Assembly (NCBI RefSeq): GCF_006345805.1 | Contig: NC_043020.1 | Location: forward strand, 27,528,001 to 27,592,000 | Direction of reading: 5' to 3' | Length of the DNA stretch: 64,000 nucleotides | Source: Octopus sinensis | Taxonomy: Eukaryota | In this document: positions 3,246 through 63,179 of the stretch, piece by piece | Layout of the letters: each line of letters opens with the position of its first letter | How positions within the stretch are numbered: position 1 is the stretch's first letter | Made by a program: the position numbers and the translations under genes | Notes under the pieces: model-generated | What the model was told of the DNA's origin: nothing | What the model saw: only the letters and a program-made list of their open reading frames with translations | Database searches by the model: none

Positions 3246-3289
<44 letters not shown>

Positions 3290-5205: not shown

Positions 5206-5420
5206 ACCGGAGTAAACACATAAATGTGAAACAAGGTGGAAAAAAGAGTACTCAAATACCAGTGGTAGAGTAATATGCTTTATTTTAAGCAGCAGAAAAT
5301 TCAACAAAATCTGTTACTCTGAGTTTCTCGTTGCCGTTCATCAGACAGTTTTGTCTGATGAACGGCAACGAGAAACTCAGAGTAACAGATTTTGTTGAAT
5401 TTTCTGCTGCTTAAAATAAA

Positions 5421-5421
<1 letters not shown>
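5206..5421. mobile_element. Penelope-like hairpin element with minimal hammerhead in each arm
   Basis: Perfect 70-bp inverted arms (5278-5347 / 5352-5421), 4-nt loop, (TA)n flanks, left side extended. Confidence 0.75.
5350..5389 (+). ncRNA. Minimal type I hammerhead motif (mirror copy on - at 5311-5348)
   Basis: TTTGT CTGATGA A CG-GCAA-CG A GAAA CTC-A-GAG TA ACAGA. Confidence 0.6.
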
Positions 5422-5487
<66 letters not shown>

Positions 5488-6683: not shown

Positions 6684-7447
6684 TATACACACGGTTAGCA
6701 ATTTGTGGCGGCGGTTTATAAAAGGTAAGAAGTTAAGACGACCCAGAGCGAAATTCGAACACAGAACAGCGAAATGGTGAGGAATCAGTCTAAACTGATG
6801 TTATAATTAAGGTAATCGATTTAAAGAAAGAAAAAAAAGAAAATCAATTAACGATGCTAAATTTCTTAATTGAATAAAATAAATTGAACCAAATGTAAAT
6901 AAAATAATTATACAATTAAAAAAAACAACAACGAAAACCCAACATCGAGGATGATAGACGTATACATATATATGAAGACGTGTGTATATTATATATATAT
7001 ATATATATACATACATACACAATTATATGAAAACATACATAGACACAATTATTATTAAAACATATATATATACATTTATATGAAAACTCATCTATTCAAT
7101 TATGATCGTGTGTATGTATACATGTGTGGGTGTTTAATATACATATGTATATAACATATACGCAATTATATATATGCGTATGTACATTTCATCCATCCAT
7201 ACATACACATATATATATATATGTATATATACATATATATAATCTGAGATTTGCCATGAAGACAATCACAGAGAGAGAAAGAGACATGAGACAGACAGAC
7301 TCGTCACAGGCAGAGAATGGAGACGTTGTGAATGTCTGTCTTTATAAAACGGGCACTGAGGCTTATGGAGGGCTTTTTTTTTTCCTCTCTTCGCTAATAA
7401 CCATCAGGCATGTGGCGCATGCAAGGTGGGAAACACAAGTAACTTAC

Positions 7448-7465
7448 CGCTTTGTTAGAAGCCAT
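7448..7465 (-). CDS. Probable first coding micro-exon (MASNKA) of an unidentified gene running leftwards, copy 1
   Basis: Minus strand reads ccaagATGGCTTCTAACAAAGCG|GTAAGT: YY1-like CAAGATGGC start context, perfect donor, downstream of a CpG-rich 5' region (7660-7850). No downstream exon was identified in the window. Confidence 0.6.
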
Positions 7466-7659
7466 CTTGGAAAATATTTGTTGATACGAACCGCTCCCCC
7501 TTTTTATAAGCCAGGGCAGGATCGGGTCTTTTTTTTTTTGTGGTTTTTGTGGTATTTTTGTGTATTTTTGTGTATGTGCGTGTGCGTGCGTGCGTGTGTG
7601 TGTGTGTTGGTGTTGGTGTGTGATGTTTTTTTTTTTTTTTATTTATTGTTTTTTTAGTT

Positions 7660-7990
7660 GGCCCTCGTCAGCCGAAACCGAGAGCAGCAGCAGCAAAGCA
7701 AGCGGATTTTGAAAGCGGAGGAGAAAAACGAATAACGCGCGGCGCGCGGGGCGCACCATCATCATTAATAATAATAATAATAATATTACAGACTCCGACA
7801 TCAATTACTCCGACGTCACCGCCGCCATCACCACCATCGTCATCACCGTAGTCAAGAGGAATGAGACAGAGGAAGGGAGGAGGAAGGAAGGAAGGAAAAG
7901 AGTAGAGAGTGAGAGAGAAAGAGAGAGGGGGAAGGAGAATGGAAGAGAGAGAGAGAGAGAGAGATGGAATGAGAGACAATGAGAGAGAAA
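7660..7990 (-). promoter_or_regulatory. CpG-rich 5'UTR/promoter segment followed by GA-rich tract (duplicated at ~8860-9190)
   Basis: gcgcggcgcgcggggcgc CpG cluster and (GA)n-rich tract upstream of the MASNKA ATG. Confidence 0.4.
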
Positions 7991-8141
7991 AACGAGAGAT
8001 TATTATGTAATTAGTTCAAACAGTGCGTGCATATCTCTCTCTTTTTACTTCTCTACCACTTTTCACACACATATATATATATATAGGTGGTTGCATATAT
8101 ATATATATATTTATTATATATATATATATATATAATATATA

Positions 8142-8172
<31 letters not shown>

Positions 8173-8306
8173 CATACAACCACCTACACACACGCACATA
8201 CATACATATATACACACACATATACATATACATACATACATACATATATATCTTTATATGTATATATAGATATATGTATATGTATATATATAATTATATA
8301 TATATA

Positions 8307-8339
<33 letters not shown>

Positions 8340-8671
8340 ATATATTATATATATATATATATATATTATGTACATGTATATATATATGTATATATATGTA
8401 CATGTATATATATATGTATATATATATATATCTATATATATATATGTATATATATACATATATATAATCTGAGATTTGCCATGAAGACAATCACAGAGAG
8501 AGAAAGAGACATGAGACAGACAGACTCGTCACAGGCAGAGAATGGAGACGTTGTGAATGTCTGTCTTTATAAAACGGGCACTGAGGCTTATGGAGGGCTT
8601 TTTTTTTCCTCTCTTCGCTAATAACCATCAGGCATGTGGCGCATGCAAGGTGGGAAACACAAGTAACTTAC

Positions 8672-8689
8672 CGCTTTGTTAGAAGCCAT
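8672..8689 (-). CDS. Probable first coding micro-exon (MASNKA), copy 2 in tandem duplication
   Basis: Identical to copy 1, offset 1224 nt. Confidence 0.55.
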
Positions 8690-9305
8690 CTTGGAAAATA
8701 TTTGTTGATACGAACCGCTCCCCCTTTTTATAAGCCAGGGCAGGATCGGGTCTTTTTTTTTTTGTGGTTTTTGTGGTATTTTTGTGTATGTGCGTGCGTG
8801 TGTGTGTTGGTGTTGGTGTGTGATGTTTTTTTTTTTTTTATTTATTGTTTTTTTAGTTGGCCCTCGTCAGCCGAAACCGAGAGCAGCAGCAGCAAAGCAA
8901 GCGGATTTTGAAAGCGGAGGAGAAAAACGAATAACGCGCGGCGCGCGGGGCGCACCATCATCATTAATAATAATAATAATAATATTACAGACTCCGACAT
9001 CAATTACTCCGACGTCACCGCCGCCATCACCACCATCGTCATCACCGTAGTCAAAGAGGAATGAGACAGAGGAAGGGAGGGAGGAAGGAAGGAAGGAAAA
9101 GAGTAGAGAGTGAGAGAGAAAGAGAGAGGGGGAAGGAGAATGGAAGAGAGAGAGAGAGAGACAGATGGAATGAGAGACAATGAGAGAGAAAAACGAGAGA
9201 TTATTATGTAATTAGTTCAAACAGTGCGTGCATATCTCTCTCTTTTTTACTTCTCTACCACTTTTCACACACATATATATATATATAGGTGGTTGCATAT
9301 ATATA

Positions 9306-9384
<79 letters not shown>

Positions 9385-9477
9385 CAACCACCTACACACA
9401 CGCACATACATACATATATACACACACATATACATATACATACATACATACATATATATCTTTATATGTATATATAG

Positions 9478-9564
<87 letters not shown>

Positions 9565-9656
9565 ATATAATATATTATGTACATGTATATATATATGTAT
9601 ATATATGTACATGTATATAATATATATATATATATATATATCTATATATATATATG

Positions 9657-9699
<43 letters not shown>

Positions 9700-10886
9700 C
9701 ACACACGTATGTGTGTGTAGATATCTAAACTTCCTTATTTAATTATCTCAAGTTCTCCATCAGAAACAAACCAAGAAGGACGACTTTTTTTCTTTTTTCT
9801 TTTTTTTTCATTTTATTTTTTTTTTGTCACTTGACCTGCAAGACACAATAGCTTATTCTCTCCTTGAATCACTTCCTCCTGTCTGAAAGCAGGACACATT
9901 GGATAAATAATGTAACCATAAATTCTTTCTTTCTTTCTTTCTTTTTTTTCTTAGACGGGATGGTCACGGTTTTGATCGCCATTTGGTCATAATAATTTTC
10001 TTCTTCAGGACCGATCTGCTACTAAAAGAACAACTTTTCTCAATTCCGCTTCTATGTGGTCGCTCGCTCTGCTAAAAATAGCAGCTAAGTTTATCTCAAA
10101 TCGATAACTTTTCGAGAAAAGGACAAAAAAAAAAAAAAGGGATATTCTTTCGGTTTGTGATCAAAAAAGTCAAAAACGAAATATTGACATTATTTGACAA
10201 ATGTCCAAGCAGACATGTCCAAAAGGCAACCCACGCCAATTTTTTCTTCTTTTTTTTTTCTCTCAAAACTTTCTTTGGATTCCAGTTTTCAACTAAGGAA
10301 ATTTTGCCAAATTGATAAATAAATATTTTTTGCTTTTAACTTTTTCAATATTTTGTTTGTTTTAATGGGGATAGAATTGGGGTAGATTCCAGATTACGAT
10401 TCTAAAAAAAAAAAAATTTTATTTCATTTTCATTTTTTGTTCAAACTAATCAGTTTTTATTGAGAATAATTCTTTCGCTTTCACTTTGTGATCATAAAAC
10501 GAAAGAAGGCAAAAACAAAAATAAAAAAAATACTAGGTCAGGCATGGGTGTGTGGTTATAAAACCCACTTTGCAAACACGTGGTTTGGAGATCAGTCCCA
10601 CTGTGTGGTACTTTGAGCGAGTTTCATCTATAACCCCCGAGCCTATGGATGTCTTTGGAATGAATCAGGGAGACAGAAACTGTGTGGAAGCTTGCCTTGT
10701 ATATTGTGTGTGTGTGTGTGTTGCTTGGGCATTGCAAGACTAATAACGTGGTGTACTACTCAATACACATATGCATCAGAGCTAAGCACAAAGCCGAAAC
10801 AGCTGTAAGCTAATGAAGTTCAAAAGATAATTTGTTTATTCCTTAATCACCTCATTCTCTTATATATACATATATATACATATATA

Positions 10887-20772: not shown

Positions 20773-20853
20773 ATGGTATACACGGGCGAATTTTGTATGG
20801 GGTCTCGTTTGCTGACACCACTTTCAGATTTCTTCGGTTTACCCATAGACCAG
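20773..20853 (+). CDS. MBOAT2: MBOAT1/2 coding exon 1 ([27 protein letters not shown])
   Basis: aaacATGG start, 27 codons, CAG|gtatgt donor. Resembles the MBOAT2 N-terminus GS.LL.PLS....LPIDQ. Too short for the ORF track. Confidence 0.9.
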
Positions 20854-31200: not shown

Positions 31201-32358
31201 TGTTATTTTAGTTGGGTTTGTTTGTAGTCAAGAGGAGACAGCAGTAACATAGCTAAAGGTTAGGTCAGTCAAAGCTGTCCTTCATCTTCCTTTCTCTCTA
31301 GACAAAAAGCACAACAAAACACACCAAAAATTCCGCCCTGAAAACAGAATGATCTCCCTCGACCTCACCTTTAACCTATTCAATACCACCCAGCCTGAAA
31401 CTGTCCCTGCTTCTCTAATACAAGTGACCTGTTTTAAAGTAATCTAAATTACTAGGTTGAGGAAAACGCTTGTGCACCATGTTAAAATAATGATTTTTTA
31501 TGCAAGAATTTATTCAAAATCAACAAACAACTATTCTTCAAAATAAACATCATCATTTTCCACGACCTTCTACCAATGATCTGCAAGATTTCAGATTTGG
31601 TCAAAGTACCAATGTTTCAGCTTTGAATGGAAAAATTCTTGACAGGCTTCTTCAACTTCATCGAATGATTCAAATCGGTGACCTTTCATAAAGTGCTGCA
31701 TTGATCGGAAGAGACCGTAATCAGGTGGAGCAAGGTCTGGACTATAGGCTGGATGCAGCAGAGCATCCACATCGCCTAATTCTTCAATCCAGTTGCTGGT
31801 CTTTCTGGTGGTATGTGGCTTTGCATTGTCTTGTTGAAACAAAGCACGTTTTCGATGAACAATTCTTGGGTCCTTTTCAACCAGTGCATTGTAGACACAA
31901 TCAAGTTGCTTGCAGTACAGTTCAGCATTGATAGCACAACCATTAGATGTAATGTATATGACAATTTCAAACCACTTGAAAGAGATTGGAAAAACAAAAA
32001 AAACTTGAGAAATGGGTGCCACACGAATTGAATGACAACCAAAAAAAAGGCCGTTTTGAAGTGTTGTCTTTCCTTCTTTTATGCAACAAGAATGACCCAT
32101 TTCTCGACCAGATTGTGACTTGCAATAAAAAGTGGATTCTTTACGACAACTGGTGATGCTCAGCTCGGTGGTTGGATGCCAACAAGAGTACGTTTAGGCA
32201 GCTATTTAATGGAACCATGGTGATGGTGTGGCATATATATATACACATATAAATAGATGAGTGTATTTTTACCTTGTTAACAATTAACACGGAAAAATAT
32301 TTGATTTACACCTGCGTTAAACTCCATTTATTTATTCATATATATATAATCTCATGCA

Positions 32359-37470: not shown

Positions 37471-38580
37471 ATCATCATCATCATCACAATCTTTGCTCTG
37501 CCAAACACAATAGCTTTTGTTTTTGTATAGTTGTTGCTCATTGATTTCTTGAAGTTGGAAGTGTACCAACAGGTTAATAACACACATACACACGTGTATA
37601 CATACACACACTCACACACATATGTATATATGTATGTATATATGTATGTATATATATATATATAATGTATACTAACCAGTGTATTATGTGGACGTACGCC
37701 TGTATTAAACAGATTAACTTGAAACCATCTGACAATGCAGACTTGAAAGTTTACGGAGCACTTCTGATGAAAAAAAGATTAAGCTGTACGTCAACTGTTT
37801 CTATGGGAACTAAACACCTGCAAAACAAAGAGGAGTTGGCTGGATTGGTGTTTATTGGTATAGACCAGCATTTCTCAACCGGGGTTCCCCGGAACCCTGG
37901 GTTCTGCGGAAGGTTCCTAGGCGTTCCGTGAGATAAGCTAATGCTAATTTCATGATTGTAATATTACTGTGCATGCACAACATATTATTGGTTAGGGGTT
38001 CCCTTGAGACATGTAATTTCTTTTAAGGGTTACGCAAGGGTAAAAGGGTTGAGAAACACTGGTGTAGACATACAACATGAAATTAAGGACCAGCCGCAGA
38101 TAATAAGGGACGGAGGACCCGGGCACAGAGTTCTGAGATGCATCTCTGTTGTGACCACTTGAAGATTGTCATCATCATCATCATTGTCATCATCATCTTT
38201 GTGTTAGTACCCACTTCCCTGAGCTTCTGATTAATACTTCGCATGTACCATGTCCTCGCGTTGTTTTTTTCTCTCCGTTTTTTTTTTGATTAATCATATA
38301 CACACACATACACACACACATATGCCCTGCTGTTAAAGCAATGAGGACATCTCCATAGACAAAACCTATGTACTTGTTGTCAAATACAGTGTGATGCACT
38401 TGTCGACACATTAGACATGGCTTCTCTTTTTTTTTACCTAACAACTCTCTCTCTCTCTCTTTCTCTCTTTTGCTTCTACCCACCGACACCACCAACTCAT
38501 TTTGTGATTTTCCCTCATCCAGTTGTCACTCACTTGTCACCTATGTCATATTCATACAATACAAATGTGTGTGTATGTGT

Positions 38581-45897: not shown

Positions 45898-48800
45898 GTT
45901 ATTATGCAAAAGTGTCATAAGTCCAAAATGTTCAGATAACAAAAAATAGTTTCACCGTTCCATTTCTTTTTACATTAGCAACAGCTTCAGTCAAACAGTA
46001 ATTCTTTGTTTGGTACATAAAATCTTACACTCCATGCATGTAGGATATTTTCAGTCAGAAATATTTTGGCAAAAACTGTCGTATGTGGGACTTATCCGTT
46101 GAATAAGCTGCCGGACGAGATAGTAAAGATGTCGACAACCGCTCAGTTCAAAGTCTCTCTTGACCAGAAATGGCCTGAACTCTTTGCATGAACACCCTCC
46201 CTGTACATAACTCCCTGTCCCCCTACATGGCCTTGCTTTTTGCTTTTGAGCCAAAAAATTAACTTAACTTAACTTACTATACTTTTGAAAAATGCTAAAC
46301 CGTTGTACTACACTTTGACAATTTTCATATCTTGGCATCGGGAGCAACTGGAGATATGATAGTTTGACAAAATGAATCAGCTGTTGTAAGTAAAATTAAA
46401 TATTGAAAAAAATGCATTTCAAGGCAGTGCTCCAGCATGGCCACAGTCAAACGACTGAAACAACTAAAAGAATAAAAGAATAAAAGAATTAGCCAAATTT
46501 GGACACACAACAGTTTAACCTAGTAACAATGATGTGTATATATATATATATGTGTGTATATATATAGGTGCAGGAGTGGCTGTGTGGTAAGTAGCTTGTT
46601 TACCAACCACATGGTTCCGGGTTCAGTCCCACTGCGTGGCACCTTGGGCAAGCCTTGTGAGTGGATTTGGTAGACGGAAACTGAAAGAAGCCCGTCGTAT
46701 ATATGTATGTATATATATATGCATGTGTGTGTTTGCCCCCCTAGCATTGCTTGACAACCGATGCTGGTGTGTTTATGTCCCTGTTACTTAGCGGTTCGGC
46801 AAAAGAGACTGATAGAATAAGTACTGGGCTTACAAAAGAATAAGTACCGGAAGTACCGGGGTCGAGTTGCTTGATTAAAGGCGGTGCTCCAGCATGGCCG
46901 CAGTCAAATGACTGAAACAAGTAAAAGAGTATATATATATATCTATATATATCTATATCATCATCATCATCATCATTTAACGTCCACTTTCCATGCTGGC
47001 ATGAGTTGGACAATTTGACTGAGGACTGGTGAACTAGTTGGTTGCACCAGGCTCCAATCTTAATCTGGCAGAGTTTCTACAGCTGGATGCCCTTCCTAAC
47101 GCCAACCACTCCGAGAGTGTAGTGGGTGCTTTTATGTGCCACCAGCACGAGGGCCAGTCAGGTGGTACTGGCAATGGCCACGAAAATATTGTGTATTTTT
47201 TTTATGTGTCACCTGCGCACCGGCACAAGTGCCAGGAAGGCGATGCTGAAAAACATAAATCCAAAAAAAGGAAGAATACTCTAAGAAATCGACCTTGTCT
47301 AGCTTTAATATATTTATTGGGTCATCCCATAAATAATGCGTTTTTTATATACTTTTTTTATTTTTCAAAATTAATATAAGCAAATTTGTTTTTTAATCTA
47401 AAATATACTCTCCTTCGTTTTCTACAATGCTCTTCCATCTATCTGGTGGACTTGTAAAGCCCTTCTTCTGAAATTCACTTGTCCAAGACGAAAAATACTC
47501 TTCCAGTACTGTTCTGACCCCATCTACAGAATTCATATTTTATCCGTCTAAATGATTTTGAAGACTGCGGAATAAATGATAATCAGATGGACCAATGTCC
47601 GGCGAATATGGTGGGTGGGGCATCGTTTTCCATTCAAACTGCTCCAGCCTTTGGGATGTCATCCTTGCTGTATGTGTCCAAGCATTTTCCTGATGGAAGA
47701 ACACCTTTCATCTTGAAACTAAAGATGGTCGCTTTTCTTCTACCATTTGTCTTGTGAGGAAAGACTGAAGACGCTCGACCTTTATTCTCTAGAAAAACGA
47801 CGATGCCATGGTGATCTCATTCTTGCTCACAACATCATAAGCGGAAAGTGTAACCTCTCGAAAGAGCTGTTCTTCACGCCTGCTCCAGAACGTCGGCTGC
47901 GGGGTCACTCCGAAAAGCTGTATCTGCGACGATTTCATCTCAATCAAAGGAGAGGGGCTTTCTCCGTCCGGGTTGCGGATCCGTGGAATAAGCTGCCGGA
48001 TGAGATAGTGAAGATGCCGACAACCGCTCGGTTCAAGGTCTCTCTTGACCAGAAATGGCCTGAACTCTTTGCATGAACACCATCCTGTACATAACTCCAT
48101 GTCCCCCTACATGGCCTTGCTTTTTGCTTTTTGAGCCAAAAAATTAACTTAACTTAACTATTCGCAACGCTTTGTTCAGCCCAAGGCTATATAGTAGAAG
48201 ACACTTGCCCAAGGTGTCACACAGTGGGACTGAACCTGGAACCATGTGGTTGGTAAGCAAGCTGCTTACCACACAGCCACCCTAACCAGTAGGCCATGCG
48301 TATATAAAAATGAACAGCACAGCTTTCAACAGATTTTGATCTTGAATGGGATCTCATCAGAGGTGTGCTGCATCATGTGACCAGTACACACACTCACACA
48401 CACACACACACGTACACGTACTATTCGCTGTTCTGCATCTTATCTTGCTCTTAGATCTTGTTGCAGCCACCCCTCCAATCCTATCCATTTTGTCAGTGTT
48501 TCCCCACCCACCCTTCATTCACCTCCCCACATTATCTTGCAACCCACCCACCTGCCCACCTGTACTCACCTTACACCTTATCGTTACCTGTCCATCGCAG
48601 CACCTCTTCATTATTCTCTCTTTCTCTCTGTCACTTCTCTCTTATTAGATGTGAGTAGCTATGATGGTCCCTTCGCATGACCCCTTCCTCCCACTCTTCT
48701 CATAGTAATCCCCCTAGCATGAAACTTACTCTCCCCATCACTCCCAGGGCTCGTAGTCCTGCGAACTGCATGCTGACCTCAACAGTGCAATGTGGATTAA

Positions 48801-51800
48801 GTGCTATTGCACTCTAGGGGTGCAGGTGCACCTGAATAGTGCAACAGTACTTGGGTCACACTGTAAAGTGGTTGACTCAGGAAGGGCATCAGGCTGTAAA
48901 AAAACCATGCCAAAGCAGACCCCGGAGCACAATGCAGTCCTTGGACACATTGGACCCTAAGAAACCATCTGACCCATGCCAGCATGGAACAGGGACGTTA
49001 AATGATTCTTCACTCCTGCTCCAGAACGTAGGCTGCGGGGTCACTCCGAAAAGCTCTATCTACAACGATTTCATCTCAATCAAAGGAGAGGGGCTTTCTC
49101 CGTCCAGGTTGCGGATCCGTGGAAAAAGCTGCCGGATGAGATAGTGAAAATGCCGATGACCGCTCGGTTCAAAGTCTCTCTTGACCACAAATGGCCTGAA
49201 CTCTTTGTATGACCACCCTCCCTGTACATAACTCCATGTCCCCCTACATGGCCTTGCTTTTGCTTTTTGAGCCAATAAGAATTGAATTGAATTGAATTGA
49301 TAATGATGATGATGATGTTGCACACTTTCGTATAAATTTGTACCAGGCGCAGGAGTGGCTGTGTGGTAAGTAGCTTGTTTACCAACCACATGGTTCTGGG
49401 TTTAGTCCCACTGCGTGGCATCTTGGGCAAGTGTCTTCTGCTATAGCCCTGGGCCGACCAATGCCTTGGTAGACGGAAACTGAAAGAAGCCCGTCGTATA
49501 TATGTATATATGTGTTTGTGTGTCTGTGTTTGTCCCCCTAGCATTGCTTGACAACCGATGCTGGTGTGTTTACGCCCCCATCACTTAGCGGTTCGGCAAA
49601 AAGAGACCGATAGAATAAGTACTGGGCTTACAAAGAATAAGTCCTGGGGTCGAGTTGCTCGATTAAAGGCGGTGCTCCAGCATGGCCGCAGTCAAATGAC
49701 TGAAACGAGTAAAACAGTAAAAGAGTAAAGACCAGTTTAAAAAAAAGAATATAGAGGAAAAGGAAGATTAGGAGAGGAAAAGGAAGAGGGGAGATTGTAC
49801 TGAAGCAGGGCGTCCTCTTTCTTTACTCATCTATTTACATTAAGCGATTGCAGCAAGAAGCGGGGGGGGGGGATATGACTGGGTAGGTGGGGGAGTGGGG
49901 GTGTGGGTGCCGTTTGGCTTATTTTGCTCTCCCCCCCACCTCCCTCCGTTTTGGTGATTACACTATTAGTCTGTTTCGTTGAATAAAGCCAAACCCCCAC
50001 CCCCCGTGTACATCTGTTTCTCCCCCGTCCCCTACGCCTACGTCTGTTCATCCTTCCCCTAATTCAAGTCTATTCTCTCTTGCACCCTTTGACTGTTTCA
50101 GTTTTACCTTTGCTCAATGCACAGCATGTTAAAAATCACACCCATATATACCCATATATATATAATTATTTATGGGTGTGGTAACCAGTGAATGCATGTG
50201 TTTATATGTGGGTGGTAGTGGTGGGTCTTTGTGTGTGTGTGTGGAGCAGGGCATCTTTGCTTAAGCATCTATTCGCCCCTCCATGCTATCATTATATAAT
50301 ACGTATTTGCATACACACTTTTGCAGAGGCATGGGGGTTCACACTTTAATTCCTCATCATATGCATGTCCCTGTCTGTTTATGTATATATGTGTTTAAAA
50401 ATAGGAGTGGCTGTGTGGTAAGTAGCTTGCTAACCAACCACATAGTTCCGGGTTCAGTCCCACTGTCTGGCACCTTGGGCAAGTGTCTTCTACTATAGCC
50501 TCGGGCCGACCAAATGCCTTGTGAGTGGATTTGGTAGACGGAAACTGAAAGATGCCCGTCGTATGTATGTATATATATATATAAGTGTGTGTGTATATGT
50601 TTGTGTGTCTGTGTTTGTCCCCCTAGCATTGCTTGACAACCGATGCTGGTGTGTTTATGTCCCCGTTACTTAGCGGTTCGGCAAAAAGAGACCGATAGAA
50701 TAAGTACTGGGCTTACAAAAAGAATAAGTCCTGGGGTCGAGTTGCTCGATTAGAGGCGGTGCTCCAGCATGGCCGCAGTCAAGTGACTGAAACAAGTAAA
50801 AGAGTAAAAGAGTATATATATATGTATGAATAAAGGCTTGGCTGTGTGGTAAGAAGCTTGCTTCCCAACCACATGGTTCCGGGTTCAGACCCACTGTGTG
50901 GCACCTTGGGCAAGTGTCTTCTACTTTAGCCATGTTTATCTTTGTCATTACCTGTATCCTATGAGCATAATATGCTTGCATATGTATGCCCAGGGTTAAC
51001 ATGGGTAATTTTACTGGTAATATAATGGATATTTTTATCCCTTAGACGGTTATTCCAACCTCTAACTCTACTAACCTATATATATATATATGTATATTCA
51101 AAATGTGACCGCGTGTGTACCGTTGGCGATTTTTTTTCCTCTGTCTTCCCTTCTCTGGATCTTTCCTTCTCCTATGTTTCCGACGAAGAGCTCCGCTTGA
51201 AACGTTAAACCCTCCTTCTTTCCTTCTTTCCTGAGCGTCCAATAATACTATATTTGTTCCACGTCCTCGCGTTGTTGTGTTTTTTGTGCTTTCTTGTTTG
51301 GATTAACTATATATATATATATGTGGAGGTACAATGGTCCTGTGGTTAGGGCAGCGGTTTCGATTCCCAGACCGGGCATTGTGAATGTTTATTGAGCAAA
51401 AACACCTAAAGCTCCACGATGCTCTGGCTGTAGGATGGTGGTGGTGGCGACCCCTGCTGTACTCTTTCGCCACAACTTTCTCTCACTCTTTCCTCTGTTG
51501 GCCTGCTCACTTAGCCAGCGGGGTGGCGTCATTTGAAGGCTAAACCAATGCGAAGCGCTTTGTGACCAGCGATGTGTAACAACATCTGATAGCCTGGTCG
51601 GTCACGGTGATCACAGTGATATATGTATATATACATATCAAAGAAACTAATGAACAAGAATGCAAAACATTCAGAGCGCTTTAACAGCAAGGCATACACG
51701 GAGGGGCAATGACCTCTGGGCACAAGGTTACAGGTCTTTTGATATTCAAATTCATCTATGGCACTTAGTCATTCTTTGTGTTATCGGCTACCCTCTCCCC

Positions 51801-54800
51801 ATCCTACTTCTTATCTATCTCATTCTCCCCTCATCCCTCTCCTCTCCCAAGGATGATAGAAGCAAAGTCAGACTATGGTGGTGGTGGTGGAATTTCAACT
51901 GGAATAAACGATGATAATATTTAAGTACATAAACGTAATGGAAATTTGAAAGCAGTTATAAAGTTCATTCAGATAAATGACCCGTCTTTGTTTCTTGCTT
52001 AGATTGGCATGTCTGTTTTTATGTTGAAGTTTGTCTTAGAAATTACTTTGCTGATTGATAGCAAAAGGAAAGGTGAATTGATTGATAGACAAGATAGCCA
52101 GGTAGATTGATAGATGTAGAGAAAGAGAAAGAGAGAGATTGATAGACATAGATAGGCATTCATAGATATATAGATATATATTTCAAAATGTGACCTCGTG
52201 TGTACCGTTGGCGAATTTTTCCCTCTGTCTTCCCTTCTCTGGATCTTTCCTTCTCCTATGTTTCCGACGAAGAGCTCCGCTCGAAACGTTAAACCCTCCT
52301 TCTTCCCTTAGCGTCCAATAATACTATATTTGTTCCACGTCCTCGCGTTGTTGTGTTTTTTTGTGTTTTCTTGTTTGGATTAACTATATATATATATATA
52401 TATTTTCCTCTGTCTTCCCTTCTCGGGATCTTTCCTTCTCCTTTGTTTCCAACGAAGAGCTTCGCTCGAAACGTTAAACCCTCCTTCTTCCCTTCTTTCC
52501 TGAGTGTCCAATAATACTTTATTTGTTCCACGTCCTCGCGCTGTTGTGTTTTTTTGTGTTTTCTTGTTTGGATTAAACTATATATATAGATAAATAGATG
52601 TGTAGAAAGACAAACAAGATGTCCACAAATTATCTTTACAGTTCAGAAAAAAAGTGAAAAAATAAGGATCAGTCATTAGGGGCCTCCAAATCTTTTGAGT
52701 TCTTTTACAGGGCTTAGAAAAACTGAAGGACCGCTGCAATAAGTGTGTGAATCTGGGAGGGGAATATCTTGAATAAAATCCTAATTAACTGATCCTCCTG
52801 TATTTTCGTTTACCCAAAACCAGGAACTTTTCAACCCCCTTTTATATACACCTTGGGAGCCAGGAAACCGACTCTATGAGCCTATATGAATCGGGAAGGC
52901 TCTTTGTAGCCTAATTTTATCCCAGACACTCACCACTATAGGCTATTTTTATTACTGTATTCATGTAGGAGGTTTCCATTATCGTGATGGCTTGCTTCAT
53001 ATTCAGCTGTACAGCTAAATTACTTGTTTTAGAAACGGTGATATTTACTGCTGAAGTACTTTCGTGAAGTTTTGTAATGTACTCTTAGATATCTTTAAGC
53101 ATTGCCTGCTTTAATGCACAACAGGCAACTTTTCTCAGACATGAGCTGCTGAAACTGGGACGCATCTGATATGCCCATGCAGCCTTTATGCTATCAAGTA
53201 CAGGTAAGACAGGTAGATAGGTATGCAGGTAGGTAGGATATGGAGGTAGGTAGATACACAGACAGACAAACAGGCATGCACACAAGGAAGGGTGGTTAGA
53301 GTGATAAATAAATAAATAGGTTGATAGAAATGGTCTTGATGTAGGAATGACTTCACTTGGCTTTGATTCTGAGGCTTATGATGGGGGAAAAGGTGGGGAT
53401 GTGTGTGTGTGGGGGGTTAGTGGAACAGAGTGCTCAACACGTGACTCTAGCACTTCAAAGGTAGATTTTGATGGCCTGTATCACTAAAATCACCAGAGAG
53501 GATGAAGAAGTGGGGAGAAACCCAGCCCATTTATATATGTGTATCCATCCATCCATCCATCCATTCATCCATCTGTCTGTCCGTCTATTTATCTATCTTT
53601 CGCTTGTTTCAGTCATTACACTGTGGCCATGCTGGGGCACAATCGTGGAGACTTTTAGTCAAATGAATTGACCCCCCTGGTACTTATTATTTTTTTGTAA
53701 AGCCCTGTACCTCTTCTATCGATTTCTTTTGTCAAACTGCCAAGTTATAGGGATGTAAATGTACCAACACTTGTCAAGAATTGGTAGGATATACACACAC
53801 ACACACGACAGGCTTTATTCAGTTTCCGTCTACCAAATCCACTCACAAGGCTTTGGTCGGCCTGAGGCTATAGTAGGAGACACTGGCCCAAGGTGCCACG
53901 TGGTGGGACTGAACCCGGTACCATTTGGTTGGGAAGTAAGCTTCTTACCACACAGCCACGCTCTTTTAACACTTTTGTTGTTATGTTTCTGTTTAAATAA
54001 GCTTCCCTTTTGTTTTAATTAATGCTGAAAATAACGAACGATTTAATGAAGCAACTTCTTTATTTTGCTGCTGTTTGGAACATAACAGAAATTTTTTGAT
54101 AAAAGCTTTTAATTTGAATTCCTCTTTTGTTACGATGCGTCTGTTGAAATACAATGTCTTTCATCTTCAACATCATCATCATCATCATCATTGTTTTAAC
54201 CCCCTCAGCTTTCAGATTATTCTGTTAAATGGATAGTTTATTTATTCACATCATTTTGAATTAACCCCTTTTGTTACCATATTTCTGTTGAGATGCTCTG
54301 TGTTTCTCTCAATTATTTTAACTATAACAAAGAATTTAGTAAAACAACTTAGTTATCATTAAGCTAGTGTTAGGAACATAAATTGTGACTAAAGTTTGGT
54401 GGAAGATTTTAATTCAAAACTTATGTAACCAAGACATTTGTACTACAGACCCTGAGATGGTTTCAGCTGGGTTGGTATCAAAAGGGTTACGAATTGTTTC
54501 TCTATTATATATTTTAACCCCTTTTCTTACCATATTTACTTTGAGATGCTCTGTGTTTCTTTCAATTAATTTTAAATATAACAAAGAATTTAGTAAAATA
54601 ACTTGGTTCTCATTAAGCTAGTGTTAGGAACTGTTATGATGTGGGTGCTTCCCACAGTTATGATGTGCAGCCACTGTTGTGACTGTAGCTATTGTATAAA
54701 CTCTAGTAGCCATGGTAATATCCTGGTATTGGATACGGTGTATCTCTTCTATACCGGAATGTTAATACACAACTTCATCTATTGTGCTATTTCCGATAGC

Positions 54801-57205: not shown

Positions 57206-58080
57206 CATATACATACATATATACTTATATATATACATACATATATATATATATATATACATACATACATATATACATTTATATATATATACATACATAT
57301 ATATATATATATATGTATGTATGTATACACACTCAGCTGTAGAAATGAGTTATGACATGACTGGTGCCAAGCTGTACTGGCCTTTTGCCTTTCTCTTGTC
57401 AAGCCATCCCACCCATGCCAGCACAGAAGGTGGATGTTAAACGACGACGATGATGATGATGATGTGTGTGTGTGTGTGATAGGCTTCCACACTGTTTCTA
57501 TCTACCAAATTCATTCAGAAGGCATTGGTTGGCCCAGGACAGTAGTCAATGGCATTTGTCCAAGGTACTGCATAGTGGGCCTGAACCTGAAACCATCTGA
57601 TTGCAAAGCAACCTTCCTAACCACCCAACCATACCTGCATCAATTACTGTATAAAATAATACATTTTACAAAATGCTCATGTCTTGAACAGAAGTTCTGA
57701 ACGCTTAAATTTTATTTAAACCCCGCCTCCAAAATAGTGGGTTACCTAGAGACCCTTTTTTTTTTCTGGTATTTGAGAACTACTGCCCCATAATTGATGA
57801 TTTCCATGAAAATTCCAACACTAATCAATTGTTTTTTCTTTTTTCTACTTTCTCTTTTAATTTTTTTTTTCTTGTCCAGTCAAGTATGGCACATTGTGGC
57901 TCAGTCCGCTGTGACATACATTATCCTGTTAGTGGCGCCGGCGATGCTGGCCCATAAGATTGTTTTTGTGTTTGCCATGGGTTACCTGTCCTGTATGCAC
58001 ATCTACCGGCAGTATTACGATTACGGAGGATATACAATGGATATAACGGGGTAAGTAAGCTGAGCAATAAGATATCACCA

Positions 58081-58118
<38 letters not shown>

Positions 58119-61100
58119 TGTGTCTCCACGTGTTCTCTGTGCATGTATGTATGTGTGTGTGTATGTATGTGTGTGTGTGTATGTATGTATGTGTGTGTAT
58201 GTATGTGTGTGTGTATGTATGTGTCTGTGTGTGTGTGTGTATGTATGTGTGTGTGTGTACGTGTGTCTCCATGTGTTCTCTGTGCATGTATGTATGTGTG
58301 TGTGTATGTATGTGTGTGTGTATGTATGTGTGTGTGTATGTGTGTATGTATGTGTGTGTATGTGTGTGTGTGTATGTATGTGTGTGTGTGTGTGTGTATG
58401 TGTGTGTATGTATGTGTGTGTATGTATGTGTGTGTGTGTATGTATGTGTGTGTGTGTGTACGTGTGTCTCCATGTGTTCTCTGTGCATGTATGTGTGTGT
58501 GTATGTTCATCTGTGTGTGTCTGCGTGCTCTTAGTTATAGCTTTATCTGCTTCAAGTTCTGAAGTTAAAAACAAATTGTTTCATGTTCTCTTAGAGTTTC
58601 TAAATTCTTATGTCATAAACCTCTTACAATTCTTGATGGTAAAAACAAAATTTCCAAAGTGTGTAACGTTTGTCATTCCTACACAAGATGGGGGTTCAAA
58701 TCCCACCAGCAGCCTTTGAGTTTTTTTAGCCAAAGGTTTTTTTAACCTAATATTTACAAGCTATTATAAGTTGAATGACTTATTTTTTATAGGCCTAGTA
58801 CTTATTCTATCAGTCTCTTTGGCCAAACTGCTAAGTTACGGGGATGTAAATACACCAACGTTGCTTGTCAAGTGATGGTGGGGGTACAAACACAGACACA
58901 CACATACACACATGTATATACGACGGGCTTCTTTCAGTTTCCGTCTACCAAATCCACTCACAAGGCTTTGGTCAGCCCGAGGCTAAAGTAGAAGACACTT
59001 GCCCAAGGTGACACACAGTGGGATTGAACCTTGAACCATGTGGTTTGTAAGCAAGCTACTTACCACACAGTTACTCCTATATATATATATATCGATGCCG
59101 AGTCAAGTACATCAACATCAGCAATATCAAAATCAAATTAAATAGAAATTGTATTTGTGAGCCCCGTGCCGGTAGCACGTAAAAAGCACAATCCAAACGT
59201 GGCCAGTACCAGTGCTGCTTTGACTGGCTTCCATGCTTGTGGCACATAAAAAGCACCATCCGATCGTGGTTGATGTCAGTTCCTCTGGCCCCTTGTGCCG
59301 GTGGCATGTAAAAAGCATCCACTACACTCTTGGAATTTTGGTGTCAGGAAGGGCATTGAGCTGTAGAAACACCGCCAGACCATATTGGGGTTTGGTGCAG
59401 CCTCCTGGCTTCCCAGACCCCAGTTGACCCATTCAACCCATGCCAGCATGGAAAACGGACGTAAAAATGATGATGATGATGATGATGATACACACACATA
59501 CACACAAAGAGCTTCTTTCAGTTTCCATCTGCCAAACCTACTCACAAGGCTTTGTTCGACCCAGTGCCATTGTAGAAGCCACTTGCCCAAGGTGCCACAC
59601 ATAGGCACTGAACTTTGTATATCTGTGTGTAAATGTGTTTCTCTTTGTGTATACATATATATATACGTTTAAATATTTGTTGTGCAAGATTTTTTATGTG
59701 AAGTCGTGTGTTGAAACAGATATTGTTATATTTTGGAATGGTCATTTTGCCAGTTTAGCCAATAAAAACACACGCACTATTTATTTGGTGTTATTTTGCT
59801 TCAGTGTTATCTATTTTTTTACATTAATCTTAATATTATTTCGGCCAATGATGCGGTCACAGGAGTGTGACGAAAGAACTCTGGCCGAAATAAGATTAAG
59901 ATTAATGTAAAAAATAAATAACACTGAAGCAAAATAACACCAAATATATAGTGTGTGTGTTTTTATTGGCTAAACTAGCAAAATGACCATTCCGAAATAT
60001 AACAATATATATATATATATTTGTACGTACATAACATACACACTTTTTAATTAGCAGCTAATTATTGTTTTTTGATTGACAGGCCTCTCATGATCAGCAG
60101 CCAAAAGCTGACCAGTCTGGCGTTCAACCTCTACGATGGCAGGTATCGCGACGACAAAGATTTATCGAAAAGCCAGCGCCAGTATGCTGTCAAGTACGTA
60201 GATATTGGAGTATTTTAATCATGTGATCTCACGACCTCATGACCTTTGTGTTGTTCGTCTTGTTGCTGTTGTTATTGCTGAGCTCCAGATATCAAAGCTG
60301 TTCCAGATATGACCACTCCATTGTTTTTTTTTTATTTTTGGTTCTCCATGGTGGTTTGTGATTCGTTGAGGGAGTTTGGTTAGTATTTCTAGCAGATGTA
60401 GTGACCACATAGAAAATGCCCGTGATGTGTTGTTTTATTATTTTTTTGTATTTGTGTTTTGTATTTGCAATCCTTTTATCTTTTTACTTGTTCCAGGCAC
60501 TGTGCTGCGGCCATGCTGGGGCACCACCCTTGAAGGGCTTGAGACAAACGGGTTCAGCGCTAGCGCTCATTTTTAGAAGTTTGGTAGTTATTCTGTCAGT
60601 CTCTTTTGCCACAACTGCTAAGTTATGGGGATGTAAACAAACCAACATTGGTTGTCAAATTGTGGAGGGACACAAACACAGATACAAGAACAGACACAGA
60701 CACATATATGTACACTCACATGTGTACACACACATACATGTATATACACACACACACATATATATACACACACACATACACATATATATGATAGATAAAG
60801 GTCCTTCCTGAGTCTTATAGACTCATAAGGGCTGGTTTCCTGGCCTCCATAACATATATATTCCCCACCTGAGTGGGCTGGAGTATCGTGAAATAAAGAG
60901 TCTTGCTCAAGAGCACAATGCATTGCTCGGCGCAAGAATTGAAACCGCGATCTTACAATCACAAGTCCAACACCCTAACCACTAAGCCCCCACCACACAC
61001 ACACACACAGCAGGCTTCTTCATAACTTCCATTTATCAAACTCACTCACAGCCCCAAAACTGTAACAGAAGACGATTCGTGAGATTGAACCCAAAACCAC

Positions 61101-61268: not shown

Positions 61269-63179
61269 TGTGACATTAAACAAATCAAACCCGCAGACGG
61301 ACCGTCTCTGTGTGTGACATTAGAGAAATTTTTAAGCAGGTCTGTTGTGTGTACGAGACTTTAGACTAATAACTGGCAGCTGACTGGTATTTCATTACAG
61401 TAATTTATGCATCCATACACACACACACACACACACACATATGTTAATTAACAAGCTGCTGTGCCGGTGTTCGTTATTTACAACTGCTTAATTGTCTTAA
61501 TGATTTTTCTCACCCGCACCACCCTCCCGCCAATTATGAATAATGTGAAACTGAAAGTGTTTATGGTATCAGAGTCTCTCCTTATGCGTTCATTGACCCC
61601 CTGTTTTTACACCCTGTTGCAGGGGCGGACCGAGAGTATTAAGGGCCCTCGGGCATAACTGTTTACTGGGCCCCTTTGAATGAGTGTTTTAGTAGAGTTA
61701 ACATGGTAGTGTGGAGGCACATGGCCTAGTGGTTAGAGCTGCGGACTCGCGGTCGAGGGATCGCGAGTTCAAACTACCTGGTCACAGGAGTAGTGTATAA
61801 GTGGCCGAGTATTCCACAGAAGCATGTCTTATAAACGTAATTGCAATGCTGTTGGTGGTAGTTGTTGAGTGACTGTGGTTTTTTTTTTTTTTTTGTGGCA
61901 GTGGTGGGCGCATAAAGAATTATTGTTGTGGTGTTACCAATAGTTGCAATGATGGGATTTGAATGTTATAAAGGACCATAACCATAGCCCTAAAACACCT
62001 CCAAATATTTCCATTTTCAGCCGATGTTCAACGAACCCTTCAAATCCACCACCCTATCAAATTCGATGACTGGCGTCCATGCTAGCAGGGTGCAAAGAGC
62101 ACCATACGAGCATGATTATTGACGGAACGGCCAACCGGCTTCTGTGTCAGTGGCACTTAAAGGGCACCATTCGAGCGTGATCGTTACCAGCATCGCCTTA
62201 CTGGCACTTGTGCCCATGCTAGTAGGGTGCCAAGAGCACCATCCGAGCGTCATCGTTGCCAGAGCAGCCAACTGGCTTCTGTGCCAGTGGCACGTAAAAG
62301 GGCACCATTCGAGCGTGATCGTTACCAAAGTCGCCTTCTGGCACCTGTGCTGGTGGCATGTGTAAAAGGATTCGAGCGAAGTCATTGCCAGTATCGCCTG
62401 ACTGGCCCCCGTGTAGGTGGCACGTAAAAAGCACCCACTACACTCTCGGAGTGGTTGGCGTCAGGAAGGGCATCCAGCTGTAGAAACTCTGCCAGATCAA
62501 GACTGGAGCCTGGTGCAGCCATCTGGTTTGCCAGCCCTCAGTCAAAACCGTCCAACTCATACTAGCATGGAAAACGGACGTTAAACAATGATGATAATAA
62601 TAATAATAATGAAATTATTGTATACAGTGCTCAGGTGCACCACAACTTGTCAGAGTATATGCAGTAATGCACAAATATCTGGAAAGCGAACAGTGTATGA
62701 GTCAGATACATGCTTGCATGTATATGGAGGGGAGGAAATCAGGTGTAGTGTTGGTGAATCTCAGAAAGCATGGAAGTTTTGAAGGATGCAGTGCTCCGAC
62801 AACTAACAACTGATGCCGGCAGTTTGTTCCATGCTTCAGCAACTCTCAGTGTGAAAAAATGTTTCCTAAAGTCATGGGAGCTGTGCTGTTTTCTGACTTT
62901 GTAAATATGTCCACGGGTGTTAGATGGGTGGAGTTTGAAAAGGTGCTCAGAGTTATTGTTTGTCAGATGGTTGATAATTTTATGATGATGATGATGATAT
63001 TAATTATTATTATTATTATTGTTTTAATGCTTTGTCTTTTTGGTTTCAGGTCGATGCCATCGCTGCTTCACTTTACCAGTTACATGTTTTACTTTCATGG
63101 AATCATTATCGGTCCTCTTGCCTTCTATGCAGACTACATGCATTTTATAAATGGAGACTGGTACCGAGAATGGGAAGTT
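20773..63179 (+). CDS. MBOAT2: MBOAT1/2-family lysophospholipid acyltransferase (Oysgedart-like), 5' part: join(20773..20853,56005..56150,57880..58050,60083..60193,63050..63179), 213 aa, continues beyond window
   Basis: Five GT-AG-bounded exons splice in frame (phases 0,2,2,2,0). Product: ...[30 protein letters not shown]...[19 protein letters not shown]/...[30 protein letters not shown].../...[33 protein letters not shown]. This matches recalled MBOAT1/2 motifs (LPIDQVNF, DITGPLMI..QK.T.LA, GP...Y.DY..FI.G). MBOAT1 vs MBOAT2 cannot be resolved. Confidence 0.93.
21530..23425 (-). mobile_element. Cluster of dominant SINE copies (e.g. 22085-22430, 22905-23420)
   Basis: Repeated reverse-complement SINE segments at varying divergence. 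Confidence 0.75.
23101..23270 (+). mobile_element. Related hammerhead-type element inserted in the (TA)n of a SINE (motif 23165-23200)
   Basis: CTTT CTGTAGA A GAGC-gtag-GCTC GAAA CG TA AAAG. Shares the downstream TCCTGAGCGT..TAATAC with the 51/52 kb family. Confidence 0.6.
27305..27516 (+). mobile_element. Mariner-derived MITE (second partial copy ~52670-52840)
   Basis: Imperfect TIRs GGGTGGTGAAAAGTTCCTGG / CCAGGAACTTTCCAGAACCC; retains a decayed transposase C-terminus. Confidence 0.6.
27533..27810. mobile_element. Second copy of the G3:C8 hammerhead inverted-repeat family
   Basis: Homologous to 33222-33543 with internal deletions. Motif at 27692-27742 has GAAA changed to GAAT. Confidence 0.7.
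27872..28135. mobile_element. Inverted-repeat (Penelope-like) element in (TA)n
   Basis: ~117-bp arms 27872-27988 / 28019-28135; contains CTGAAGA and GAAA motifs. Confidence 0.65.
29538..29768 (+). mobile_element. MetaSINE-like copy with imperfect TSD
   Basis: Homologous to 39621-39850, flanked by AAGACAAGGG(T/C)ACA. Others at 24045-24660 (multimer), 36508-36710, 63225-63450 and a decayed cluster at 3600-4930. Confidence 0.8.
30755..31157 (+). mobile_element. CR1-clade LINE 3' fragment, same family
   Basis: Near-identical to 47746-48160. Shorter copies at 46100-46275 and 49005-49300. Confidence 0.85.
31452..31940 (-). pseudogene. Mariner (DD34D) transposase relic, C-terminal half + TIR
   Basis: QQDNAKPH...[16 protein letters not shown] motifs; TA+CTAGGTTGAGGAAAA terminus. 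Confidence 0.85.
31945..32185 (+). pseudogene. Mariner transposase relic, linker/N-catalytic part in opposite orientation
   Basis: [25 protein letters not shown]...[19 protein letters not shown], with a frameshift and a stop. Confidence 0.8.
32727..33117 (-). mobile_element. Non-autonomous Helitron
   Basis: Minus strand 5'-TC(TTTATATATAAAAG)...hairpin CCGAGCAACGCCGGG...CTAG-3', inserted between A and T, no TSD. Confidence 0.75.
33222..33543. mobile_element. Penelope-like inverted-repeat element with G3:C8 hammerhead variant
   Basis: Arms 33287-33404 / 33426-33543, (TA)n flanks. Second family copy at 27533-27810. Confidence 0.75.
33416..33466 (+). ncRNA. Hammerhead variant with GUGAACA core
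   Basis: TTTGTCA GTGAACA G GTCGC-ggtctgaaa-GCGAC GAAA ATAT TT TGGCAAA. Confidence 0.6.
33895..34165 (+). repeat. Tandem ~105-bp repeat x2.6 of the unclassified TAGAAATAGCAGCCAAATC interspersed family
   Basis: Units at ~33900, 34003 and 34110. Dispersed family copies at ~60-440, 1905-2080, 6255-6470, 9830-10130, 43500-44070 and 60290-60415. Confidence 0.7.
34640..35285. repeat. Compound microsatellite/minisatellite (GTAT)n-GCAT-(AT)n
   Basis: Recurring TATGCATGTATATAT units; related tract at 32355-32726. Confidence 0.9.
35797..36451. mobile_element. hAT non-autonomous element containing a nested Helitron-like insert (35967-36360)
   Basis: TIR CAGGGCTGTGGAGTCG / CGACTCCACTGTCCTG; exact 8-bp TSD TTTGCAGC; GACTCC subterminal repeats. 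Confidence 0.8.
36882..37255 (+). mobile_element. Helentron-associated/DINE-1-like element
   Basis: 5' ACCTCTGCC..GGCGGAGGT inverted repeat, (GTTT)n, 3' GGCGGAGGT followed by GCACTC-TCT-GAGTGC hairpin. Confidence 0.65.
37866..38061. mobile_element. hAT (Charlie-like) MITE
   Basis: TIR CAGCATTTCTCAACC / GGTTGAGAAACACTG; 8-bp TSD GTATAGAC/GTGTAGAC. Confidence 0.8.
39621..39850 (+). mobile_element. MetaSINE-like tRNA SINE, full length with TSD
   Basis: GGCGGCGAGCTGGCAGAA head; Meta-domain-like GTCGACTTTGCCTTTCATCCTTTCGGGGTCGATAAATTAAGTACC; TSD GGTTTGAACCCACA at 39604-39617 / 39851-39864. Confidence 0.8.
41820..42210 (-). mobile_element. Dominant SINE family copy
   Basis: Homology to 10887-11273. 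Confidence 0.85.
43580..43975 (+). mobile_element. Dominant SINE family copy
   Basis: Homology to 10887-11273. Confidence 0.85.
45219..45304 (-). ncRNA. Type I hammerhead ribozyme, mirror copy
   Basis: Reverse complement reads ATTTTC CTGAAGA GAAGGCTGCAAA...TTTGCAGCTTTT GAAA CATATG TA GAAAAT. Confidence 0.8.
45429..45514 (+). ncRNA. Type I hammerhead ribozyme, canonical core
   Basis: Stem I ATTTTC/GAAAAT, CTGAAGA, 12-bp stem II GAAGGCTGCAAA/TTTGCAGCCTTT, GAAA, palindromic stem III CATATG, GUA cleavage site after 45508. Confidence 0.85.
46567..46930 (+). mobile_element. Dominant SINE family copy (small internal deletion)
   Basis: Homology to 10887-11273. Confidence 0.85.
47317..47742 (-). 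pseudogene. Mariner transposase relic (3' part + TIR)
   Basis: Minus-strand [11 protein letters not shown]...[26 protein letters not shown]; TA+TTGGGTCATCCCATAAATAATGCG terminus. Confidence 0.8.
47746..48160 (+). mobile_element. CR1-clade LINE 3' fragment (ORF2 C-terminus + 3'UTR)
   Basis: [19 protein letters not shown]...LRGHSEKL...[13 protein letters not shown]...FKVSLD; (TTAAC)n tail. Confidence 0.85.
49345..49730 (+). mobile_element. Dominant SINE family copy
   Basis: Homology to 10887-11273. Confidence 0.85.
50403..50812 (+). mobile_element. Dominant SINE family copy
   Basis: Homology to 10887-11273. Further copies at ~40815-41345(+), 53600-53960(-), 56466-56775(-) and 58770-59077(-). 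Confidence 0.85.
51098..51310 (+). mobile_element. ~200-bp (TA)n-flanked retrozyme/pLTR-like element with minimal hammerhead at 51176-51210
   Basis: GTTT CCGACGA A GAGC-tcc-GCTT GAAA CG TT AAAC; same family as 52182-52580. Confidence 0.7.
52182..52580 (+). mobile_element. Tandem dimer of hammerhead-containing element (motifs 52260-52294 and 52445-52479)
   Basis: Two direct copies separated by (TA)n; predicted cleavage sites are 185 nt apart. Confidence 0.72.
54261..55221 (+). mobile_element. Tandem array of piggyBac-like TTAA MITEs (253-bp period)
   Basis: TTAA-CCC(C)TTTTGTTACC...GGTATCAAAAGGG-TTAA units with a 23-bp spacer. Same arrangement at 42217-42940; single copies at 39901-40146 and 63500-63630(-). 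Confidence 0.75.
54632..55015. mobile_element. Probable solo LTR (384 bp) nested in MITE
   Basis: Interrupts the MITE sequence GTTAGGAAC|ATAAATTG with 5-bp TSD GGAAC; termini TGTTAT...ACAACT. Confidence 0.65.
56005..56150 (+). CDS. MBOAT2: MBOAT1/2 exon 2 ([48 protein letters not shown])
   Basis: Polypyrimidine tract + ccag acceptor; 146 nt; TA|gtaagt donor. Confidence 0.95.
57880..58050 (+). CDS. MBOAT2: MBOAT1/2 exon 3 ([17 protein letters not shown]...[11 protein letters not shown])
   Basis: T-rich tract + ccag acceptor; 171 nt; GG|gtaagt donor; phase matches exon 2. Confidence 0.95.
58080..58520. repeat. (TG)n/(TATG)n tract with three copies of ACGTGTGTCTCCAYGTGTTCTCTGTGCAT
   Basis: Anchor motif at ~58116, 58259 and 58460. 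Confidence 0.85.
59663..60008. mobile_element. Inverted-repeat element with degenerate hammerhead at the apex
   Basis: Arms 59720-59847 / 59882-60008, (TA)n flanks. Apex reads GGCCA ATGATGC G GTCACA-ggag-TGTGAC GAAA GAAC TC TGGCC. Confidence 0.7.
60083..60193 (+). CDS. MBOAT2: MBOAT1/2 exon 4 ([36 protein letters not shown])
   Basis: acag acceptor; 111 nt; AA|gtacgt donor; conserved QK.TSLAF...DG motif. Confidence 0.93.
62070..62610 (+). mobile_element. RTE-like 3' end/SINE tail with internal ~65-nt hairpin-unit array and (GAT)n/(AAT)n tail
   Basis: Six GTGCCRGTGGCAC...GCACCA-type units, then GGAAGGGCATCCAGCTGTAGAAAC...CATGGAAAACGGACGTTAAAC. Copies at 25020-25390, 39070-39420, 59150-59487(+) and 42962-43208, 46957-47250, 55222-55400(-). 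Confidence 0.7.
62610..62984 (-). mobile_element. Second CR1-clade LINE 3' fragment
   Basis: Minus-strand translation ...[49 protein letters not shown]... Confidence 0.75.
63050..63179 (+). CDS. MBOAT2: MBOAT1/2 exon 5 ([43 protein letters not shown])
   Basis: tttcag acceptor; 130 nt; GTT|gtaagt donor; PS.L....Y...F....GP motif. Confidence 0.93.

Follow-up and report, generated by a model that had tools for sequence, protein, structure and literature searches.

Minimal hammerhead ribozymes (min-HHRs) in the pLTRs of metazoan Penelope-like elements are described as mostly solo motifs (Cervera and De la Pena 2014, PMC4209133). According to that report they are characterized by an extra base before position 10.1, a G10.1-C11.1 pair, a palindrome in place of helix III and a short helix I, and the dimers published there cleave poorly. 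For Penelope-like elements themselves, truncation at the 5' end, partners in inverted orientation and insertion at (TA)n are described (PMC8557442). In an anole element, reverse transcription is reported to initiate internally, at 111-118 nt of the ORF, and the hammerhead cut lies at 26 nt; this hammerhead was cut only in the presence of protein, and its cleavage was dispensable for insertion in vitro (PMC11167929). Octopus vulgaris has the mobilizing machinery, as Penelope-like elements are given as 6.83% of its genome, in 190 families of which 31 were recently active (PMC13282606).

The second related system is the non-LTR retrozyme, described as a non-coding element of less than 50% GC with a type I hammerhead (Cervera and De la Pena 2020, PMC7229834; 10.64898/2026.07.22.740005). 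Retrozymes are likely Penelope-dependent and are described as equal head-to-tail units of ~150-450 bp with a canonical type I hammerhead, having a helix I of ~6 bp and its own short helix III. Their monomer RNA is described as highly self-paired and as abundant in linear and circular form, with one monomer junction recurring across the genome. Li, Clavereau and Pollet (2026; bioRxiv 10.64898/2026.07.22.740005) present retrozymes as pLTR derivatives with monomer proportions ranging from 0 to 1, an origin by which Penelope pLTR hammerheads and retrozymes are kin. One of nine Xenopus dimers was cut in their work, and the invertebrates in the text of the preprint are insects and one anthozoan only. 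For cephalopods, a giant squid genome paper gives 235 hammerhead-1 matches, and no description of the present octopus family was found in the literature searched. This family carries a Penelope-type minimal hammerhead, a kind known across animals since 2014.

The window, by which we mean the whole 64-kb stretch of DNA that was analyzed, contains a gene for an MBOAT protein (Pfam match to MBOAT, E 2e-05), one exon of which is 100% identical to the Octopus vulgaris lysophospholipid acyltransferase. Three copies of the repeat, referred to as A, B and C, all lie within intron 1 of this gene and in sense to it, and the MBOAT pre-mRNA presumably carries them as passengers in that intron. The features are as follows:

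20773-20853, from 56005, 57881-58051, ~60084-60194 and ~63051-63179, + strand: coding exons of the MBOAT (lysophospholipid acyltransferase 1-like) gene
20854-56004, + strand: intron 1 of the MBOAT gene, ~35 kb
38214-38300, + strand: old fragment of the 3' part of the element, 73% identical, without a hammerhead
51097-51307, + strand: copy A, a full-length solo element of ~211 bp between TA runs
51176-51210, + strand: minimal type I hammerhead of copy A, predicted cut after 51206
52182-52384, + strand: copy B, 203 bp, complete at the 5' end and missing 8 nt internally
52260-52294, + strand: minimal type I hammerhead of copy B, predicted cut after 52290
52385-52402, no strand: (TA)9 spacer between B and C, 18 nt
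52403-52578, + strand: copy C, 176 bp, lacking the 37 nt with which A and B begin
52445-52479, + strand: minimal type I hammerhead of copy C, predicted cut after 52475

The pattern GTTT CYRACGA A GAGC-NNN-GCTY GAAACGTT AAAC has three matches in the window, all on the + strand, and none in 100 dinucleotide shuffles; a looser core-only pattern returns the same three matches only, against 0.05 expected. Rfam at the gathering score gives no match in the 64 kb, and the octopus motif is missed. In copy B, which is the sole copy free of any further core or stem defect, the hammerhead is composed of stem I GUUU/AAAC, the core CCGACGA (a U4C variant), the extra A, stem II GAGC/GCUC and GAAA. Helix II has 4 bp with a 3-nt loop; helix I also has 4 bp, with pyrimidine-rich sequence on either side, and there is no intramolecular helix III, a palindromic ACGU standing in its place in all three copies. 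Core position 4 is likewise C and not U in all three, and U4C is reported to lower activity in vitro (PMC3088659). Copy A carries a private T at 51198 that results in a G10.1-U11.1 wobble (this position reads C in 95% of the family depth in sequencing run X1), and copy C carries G5A at 52451, a CpG transition. The preliminary description of this locus had reported the B and C motifs with cut sites at 52290 and 52475, a third copy 1.1 kb upstream, and an orientation sense to MBOAT with no antisense arm, all of which agree with the pattern matches, the GUU-site positions (185 nt from B to C, 1084 nt from A to B) and the finding of no antisense copy of the element in the window. Its view that G5A in copy C probably inactivates the core can be put more firmly, as very probable, since G5A is reported to abolish cleavage (PMC4027429).

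In comparing the octopus hammerhead to those of Penelope-like elements, the core C3-A9, the extra nucleotide, the G10.1-C11.1 pair and GAAA are all present in B, with U4C, and the ACGU palindrome at 15.2-16.2, the lack of a loop 3 and the 4-bp helix I also correspond. The octopus copies further resemble a Penelope pLTR, for which a 3' end fixed at ~70-130 nt past the hammerhead is expected, in their fixed 3' end, variable 5' ends and AT-rich targets. In contrast to the schistosome min-HHR, with its helix II of 7-8 bp (PMC4209133), the octopus helix II has 4 bp. Two other features are unlike the Penelope min-HHR: most of the octopus family has C at position 4, and the 5' end is the same in A and B, which hints that the element is a defined, non-autonomous unit.

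The boundaries of the copies are regular at one end and variable at the other. A, B and C have a common 3' end, located 94-103 nt past the predicted cut in 3/3 copies, and every copy (3/3) starts and stops at a TA run. The 5' end is common to A and B, and this is more easily explained by a defined short element than by random truncation. The element has a GC content of 38%, and no + strand ORF of at least 90 aa runs across the copies. Copy B extends 109 nt 5' and 94 nt 3' of its predicted cut, so that the 185 nt from cut to cut begin with these 94 nt, continue with the (TA)9 spacer of 18 nt and finish with 73 nt of C. The 185 nt is therefore no repeat unit, and Tandem Repeats Finder calls no array over the B-C pair; the (TA)9 between the two copies is likely an insertion target that they share.

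Over the span shared by the three copies, A and B differ at 3/163 positions, B and C at 7/163, and A and C at 10/171; overall, B and C show eight aligned differences and an 8-nt indel. Three of the sites at which B and C carry different alleles are not CpG sites (51137, 51156 and 51250 in the coordinates of A), and both alleles at each of them are common in the family, at 25%, 29% and 21% of summed depth in run X1. Such alleles would be the same in two units made from a single circle, from which we infer two templates; B and C probably inserted separately into the same TA tract. The 185-nt retrozyme monomer that had been proposed for this pair is thus not supported, as the copies are unequal and the length is the sum of the B tail, a TA spacer and part of a truncated C. 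What survives of the retrozyme-like reading is a type I, dimer-dependent hammerhead in a non-coding retroelement. The locus is a clear case of how TA-targeting can mimic a retrozyme dimer.

As the motif has no helix III of its own, it would need a partner and could function only in dimeric form. In the predicted double hammerhead, the ACGU of one copy would pair with the ACGU of the other, and each core would cut the site of the other copy; the B core would cut the C site at 52475, and the mutated core of C would be needed for the B site at 52290. Given that G5A would leave the C core dead, the pair would cut at most once and no monomer would be released. A core could also be provided by copy A, at a distance of 1,084 nt, though with its wobble pair. 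In folding predictions, the dimer fold lies 13.8 kcal/mol above the MFE with inter-copy pair probabilities below 0.01, and the 185-mer (31% purine) reaches -24.2 kcal/mol as a linear molecule (z -1.62) and -19.6 kcal/mol as a circle (48% paired, z -1.77), both within the shuffle range. The motif is probably inert at this locus, and the 185-nt circle is probably not made.

The octopus repeat family is abundant, dispersed and heterogeneous. Four of the 24 listed sequencing runs (X1, X14, X15 and X23) were compared with copy A at 85% likeness, with runs X19-X22 left out for their small or absent share; X1 is DNA by guess, X14 and X15 are RNA by guess only, and the contigs carry no strand, ends or level. 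Family contigs number 21,146 in X1, 5,991 in X15 and 310 in X14, and the allele spectra of the three runs are alike and heterogeneous. A copy number taken from summed contig depth would fall between ~2,600 and ~137,000, but such depth is no copy number and indicates abundance only. X23, the only raw-read run, has 2 family reads in 12,895,792, as opposed to the thousands expected for an abundant family, and thus lends no support to a high copy number; it probably comes from a different organism that carries the same label. Copies of the element are absent from both genome-contig scans (0 and 0) and from one scan of viral contigs, a second viral scan returning a single chance 19-mer in a contig of 65% GC.

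Variation within the family bears on the state of the core. Core position 4 (51181) shows C>T in ~23-25% of depth in X1 and X15, in comparison to 1-6% at five other CpGs, and in X1 taken alone the values are 23% and 3-6%. This suggests a sub-lineage with the canonical U4 core amounting to about a quarter of the X1 and X15 depth. At G5, G>A accounts for 2.9% of depth in X1 against 5-10% at background CpGs; as this does not exceed the background, G5A in C appears to be ordinary CpG decay. The RNA-guess runs show a drop in depth around the cut site, which is not interpretable, since the DNA run shows the same drop. As a separate observation, depth over the hammerhead (51178-51195) is ~7 times that over the 3' end (51286-51303) in X15 and ~1.2 times in X1, the ratio being taken from contigs, which cannot give its cause.

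Five joints that go back within the element are listed in X1, with re-entry at 51126, 51131, 51226, 51262 and 51307; each is a single contig (depth 8-50) with its own re-entry place, and two of the five re-enter within 8 nt of the position that corresponds to the start of C (51134). No such joint is listed in X14 or X15, in which, as in X1, joints spanning TA runs are under-detected, and no junction matching the 185-nt monomer is listed in X1, X14 or X15, a result that is weak for TA-spanning joints. The junction listing left out 51070-51105, and short-read contigs break at TA runs, so tandem arrays may be missed. Back-junction reads had been put forward as a check for a circle, but they do not discriminate: from -30 to +19 the junction of the circle matches linear copy C exactly, and 2/60 positions set it apart from B. 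In such families, a back-junction read at the cut site is no proof of a circle.

A metagenome scan with the core returned at least 119 loci of the same motif class, none of them octopus copies; the listed loci are evidently animal host DNA, judging from their sequence and from a fish-like protein at one of them, L041. Among the 119 loci listed, 73 are solo, and for 46 an inverted match lies no more than 600 bp away, with the inverted partner reaching at least 40 nt in 36 of the 119 (a count from the listing, with some duplicates). A direct match is found at only one of the 119, and is 14 nt long, although 39 of these loci have flanks of just 300 bp and metagenome assemblies collapse tandems. 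In these relatives, the downstream reach has a median of 73 nt (5-95%: 44-130), and the upstream reach is 30-229 nt at 71 loci. Stem I, which was outside the search pattern, pairs in 113, 98 and 92 of 120 cases at its three inner positions, with swaps among C-G, G-C and A-U in the listed relatives. By group, 27/50 cells pair, compared with an average of 18.6 in shuffles, and 27 is reached in 36 of 5000 shuffles, a statistic in which relatedness is only partly controlled. The C at position 4 also recurs, in 37 of 105 distinct relatives among the matches listed.

Three of the 119 loci listed (L041, L008 and L119) have a Penelope-like endonuclease upstream on the same strand, as a remnant in L008 and L119. 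The most complete locus is:

L041, motif 1376-1402 and ORFs 2076-3627, - strand: fish-like Penelope-type element

In this locus an RT (Pfam RVT_1, E 5e-08) and a Cys-linker GIY-YIG end ~675 nt before the motif; based on the Cys-rich linker before GIY-YIG, as described in PMC8557442, we assign it here to a putative Neptune type. Its core is letter-for-letter that of the octopus hammerhead except at positions 4 and 7 and in loop II, and its helix II is also 4 bp; with such a helix lying behind a real Penelope-like ORF, a long helix II is evidently not general. Neptune-type elements are described as having (TA)n targets, as do the octopus copies (PMC8557442). L041 is fish-like, and apart from the motif it has no sequence in common with the octopus element; the same holds for all 119 listed loci, to which the octopus element shows no similarity beyond the 30-nt motif; the link between the octopus family and these relatives is therefore one of class and not of shown descent. 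Within the window there is no convincing match to a Penelope ORF (best E 0.05), and in the window and contig scans no octopus copy is tied to an RT or endonuclease ORF.

Taken together, the likely reading of the locus is a ~211-bp non-coding hammerhead repeat, most likely derived from a Penelope pLTR, with B and C as probable separate insertions, at most one predicted cut and no 185-nt circle. A Penelope-like RT/GIY-YIG protein would nick (TA)n DNA, and the RNA of the element would be reverse transcribed from a fixed point ~100 nt downstream of the hammerhead, much as the internal start reported for the anole element (PMC11167929). This fixed start would keep the 3' end constant and let the 5' end vary. 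A copy that ends in TA would present a fresh target, and occasional head-to-tail landing could follow; copies would decay after insertion, as with the CpG transition G5A in C.

It is unlikely, but deserves weighing, that the family is a genuine non-LTR retrozyme whose source arrays elsewhere make circles and then concatemers, with solo copies as offspring and B-C as a decayed dimer. B and C do lie head-to-tail in direct orientation, at a 185-nt spacing that falls within the 170-400 nt size range, in a non-coding element of 38% GC, and, like non-LTR retrozymes, carry a type I hammerhead. The 5' end common to A and B also speaks for a retrozyme, as do family sequence in two RNA-guess runs and the canonical-U4 sub-lineage (C>T in 23-25% of depth vs 1-6% at five other CpGs); the preprint that derives retrozymes from pLTRs allows a monomer share from 0 to 1 (10.64898/2026.07.22.740005). 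However, unlike the equal head-to-tail units described for retrozymes, B (203 bp) and C (176 bp) are unequal and split by a (TA)9 run, and they differ in common alleles, unlike a single concatemer. Active retrozymes are described in the 2026 preprint as having a complete hammerhead in at least two consecutive units, while C has G5A. The octopus hammerhead is minimal and not canonical, the 185-mer is weakly paired, and no recurrent junction is listed in the X1, X14 or X15 contigs.

A further reading, which we consider quite improbable, is that of a retrozyme at its birth, in which a short and defined non-autonomous Penelope derivative re-inserts into the TA tails of its copies and the resulting pairs in octopus introns occasionally release circles of 185-230 nt; double cutting would, on this reading, be helped by a Penelope protein or by a third copy. 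If true, this would be the first ribozyme-made circular RNA of a cephalopod in the literature searched. Release of circles from such pairs would furthermore provide a model, open to testing, of the origin of retrozymes from Penelope terminal repeats, by a direct route from solo pLTR to retrozyme.

Highly improbable is the origin of B-C in one Penelope-type event, by a partial tandem or by template switching between two family RNAs, and the pair would still be no source of circles. Partial tandems are described as typical of Penelope-like elements (PMC8557442), and a possible 11-bp TA/GATA duplication flanks the B-C block, although it is ambiguous inside a microsatellite. The order seen here is full and then truncated, the reverse of the truncated-then-full order described in the same report, and the (TA)9 between B and C is of genomic type and their alleles differ, all of which favors two insertions over one. 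A SINE mobilized by a non-Penelope LINE, its hammerhead a captured relic or chance resemblance, is barely credible: octopus does have many short elements of fixed length with simple repeats at their ends, 900 octopus SINE families are given as recently active (PMC13282606) and no Penelope ORF is linked in octopus by the window and contig scans, but the motif has four of the five min-HHR features tested, an identical core lies behind Penelope-like ORFs in relatives, and stem I covaries.

Some further features of the window lie apart from copies A, B and C. Repeat pairs spaced ~1.05-1.14 kb apart occupy 48000-50815 and suggest a local duplication just upstream of A, with A and B outside of it; the idea that A and B themselves arose by local duplication was considered and rejected, as their flanks are unrelated except for a 19-nt TA-rich inverted match. 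Near-identical ORF-like text recurs at 7100-9740 in repeats ~1.1-1.2 kb apart, as either a local tandem duplication or an assembly repeat, and a mariner-like transposase remnant (DDE_3, E 6e-4) lies at 31591-32193 on the - strand. A second, unrelated hammerhead family is present at 5206-5426, where two divergent minimal hammerheads with the canonical CUGAUGA core and a GUA site start at 5355 on the + strand and 5344 on the - strand, within a palindrome of 75-bp arms (99%) located between TA runs. The minus copy stops ~100 nt past its site, and the inverted arrangement is typical of Penelope-like insertions.
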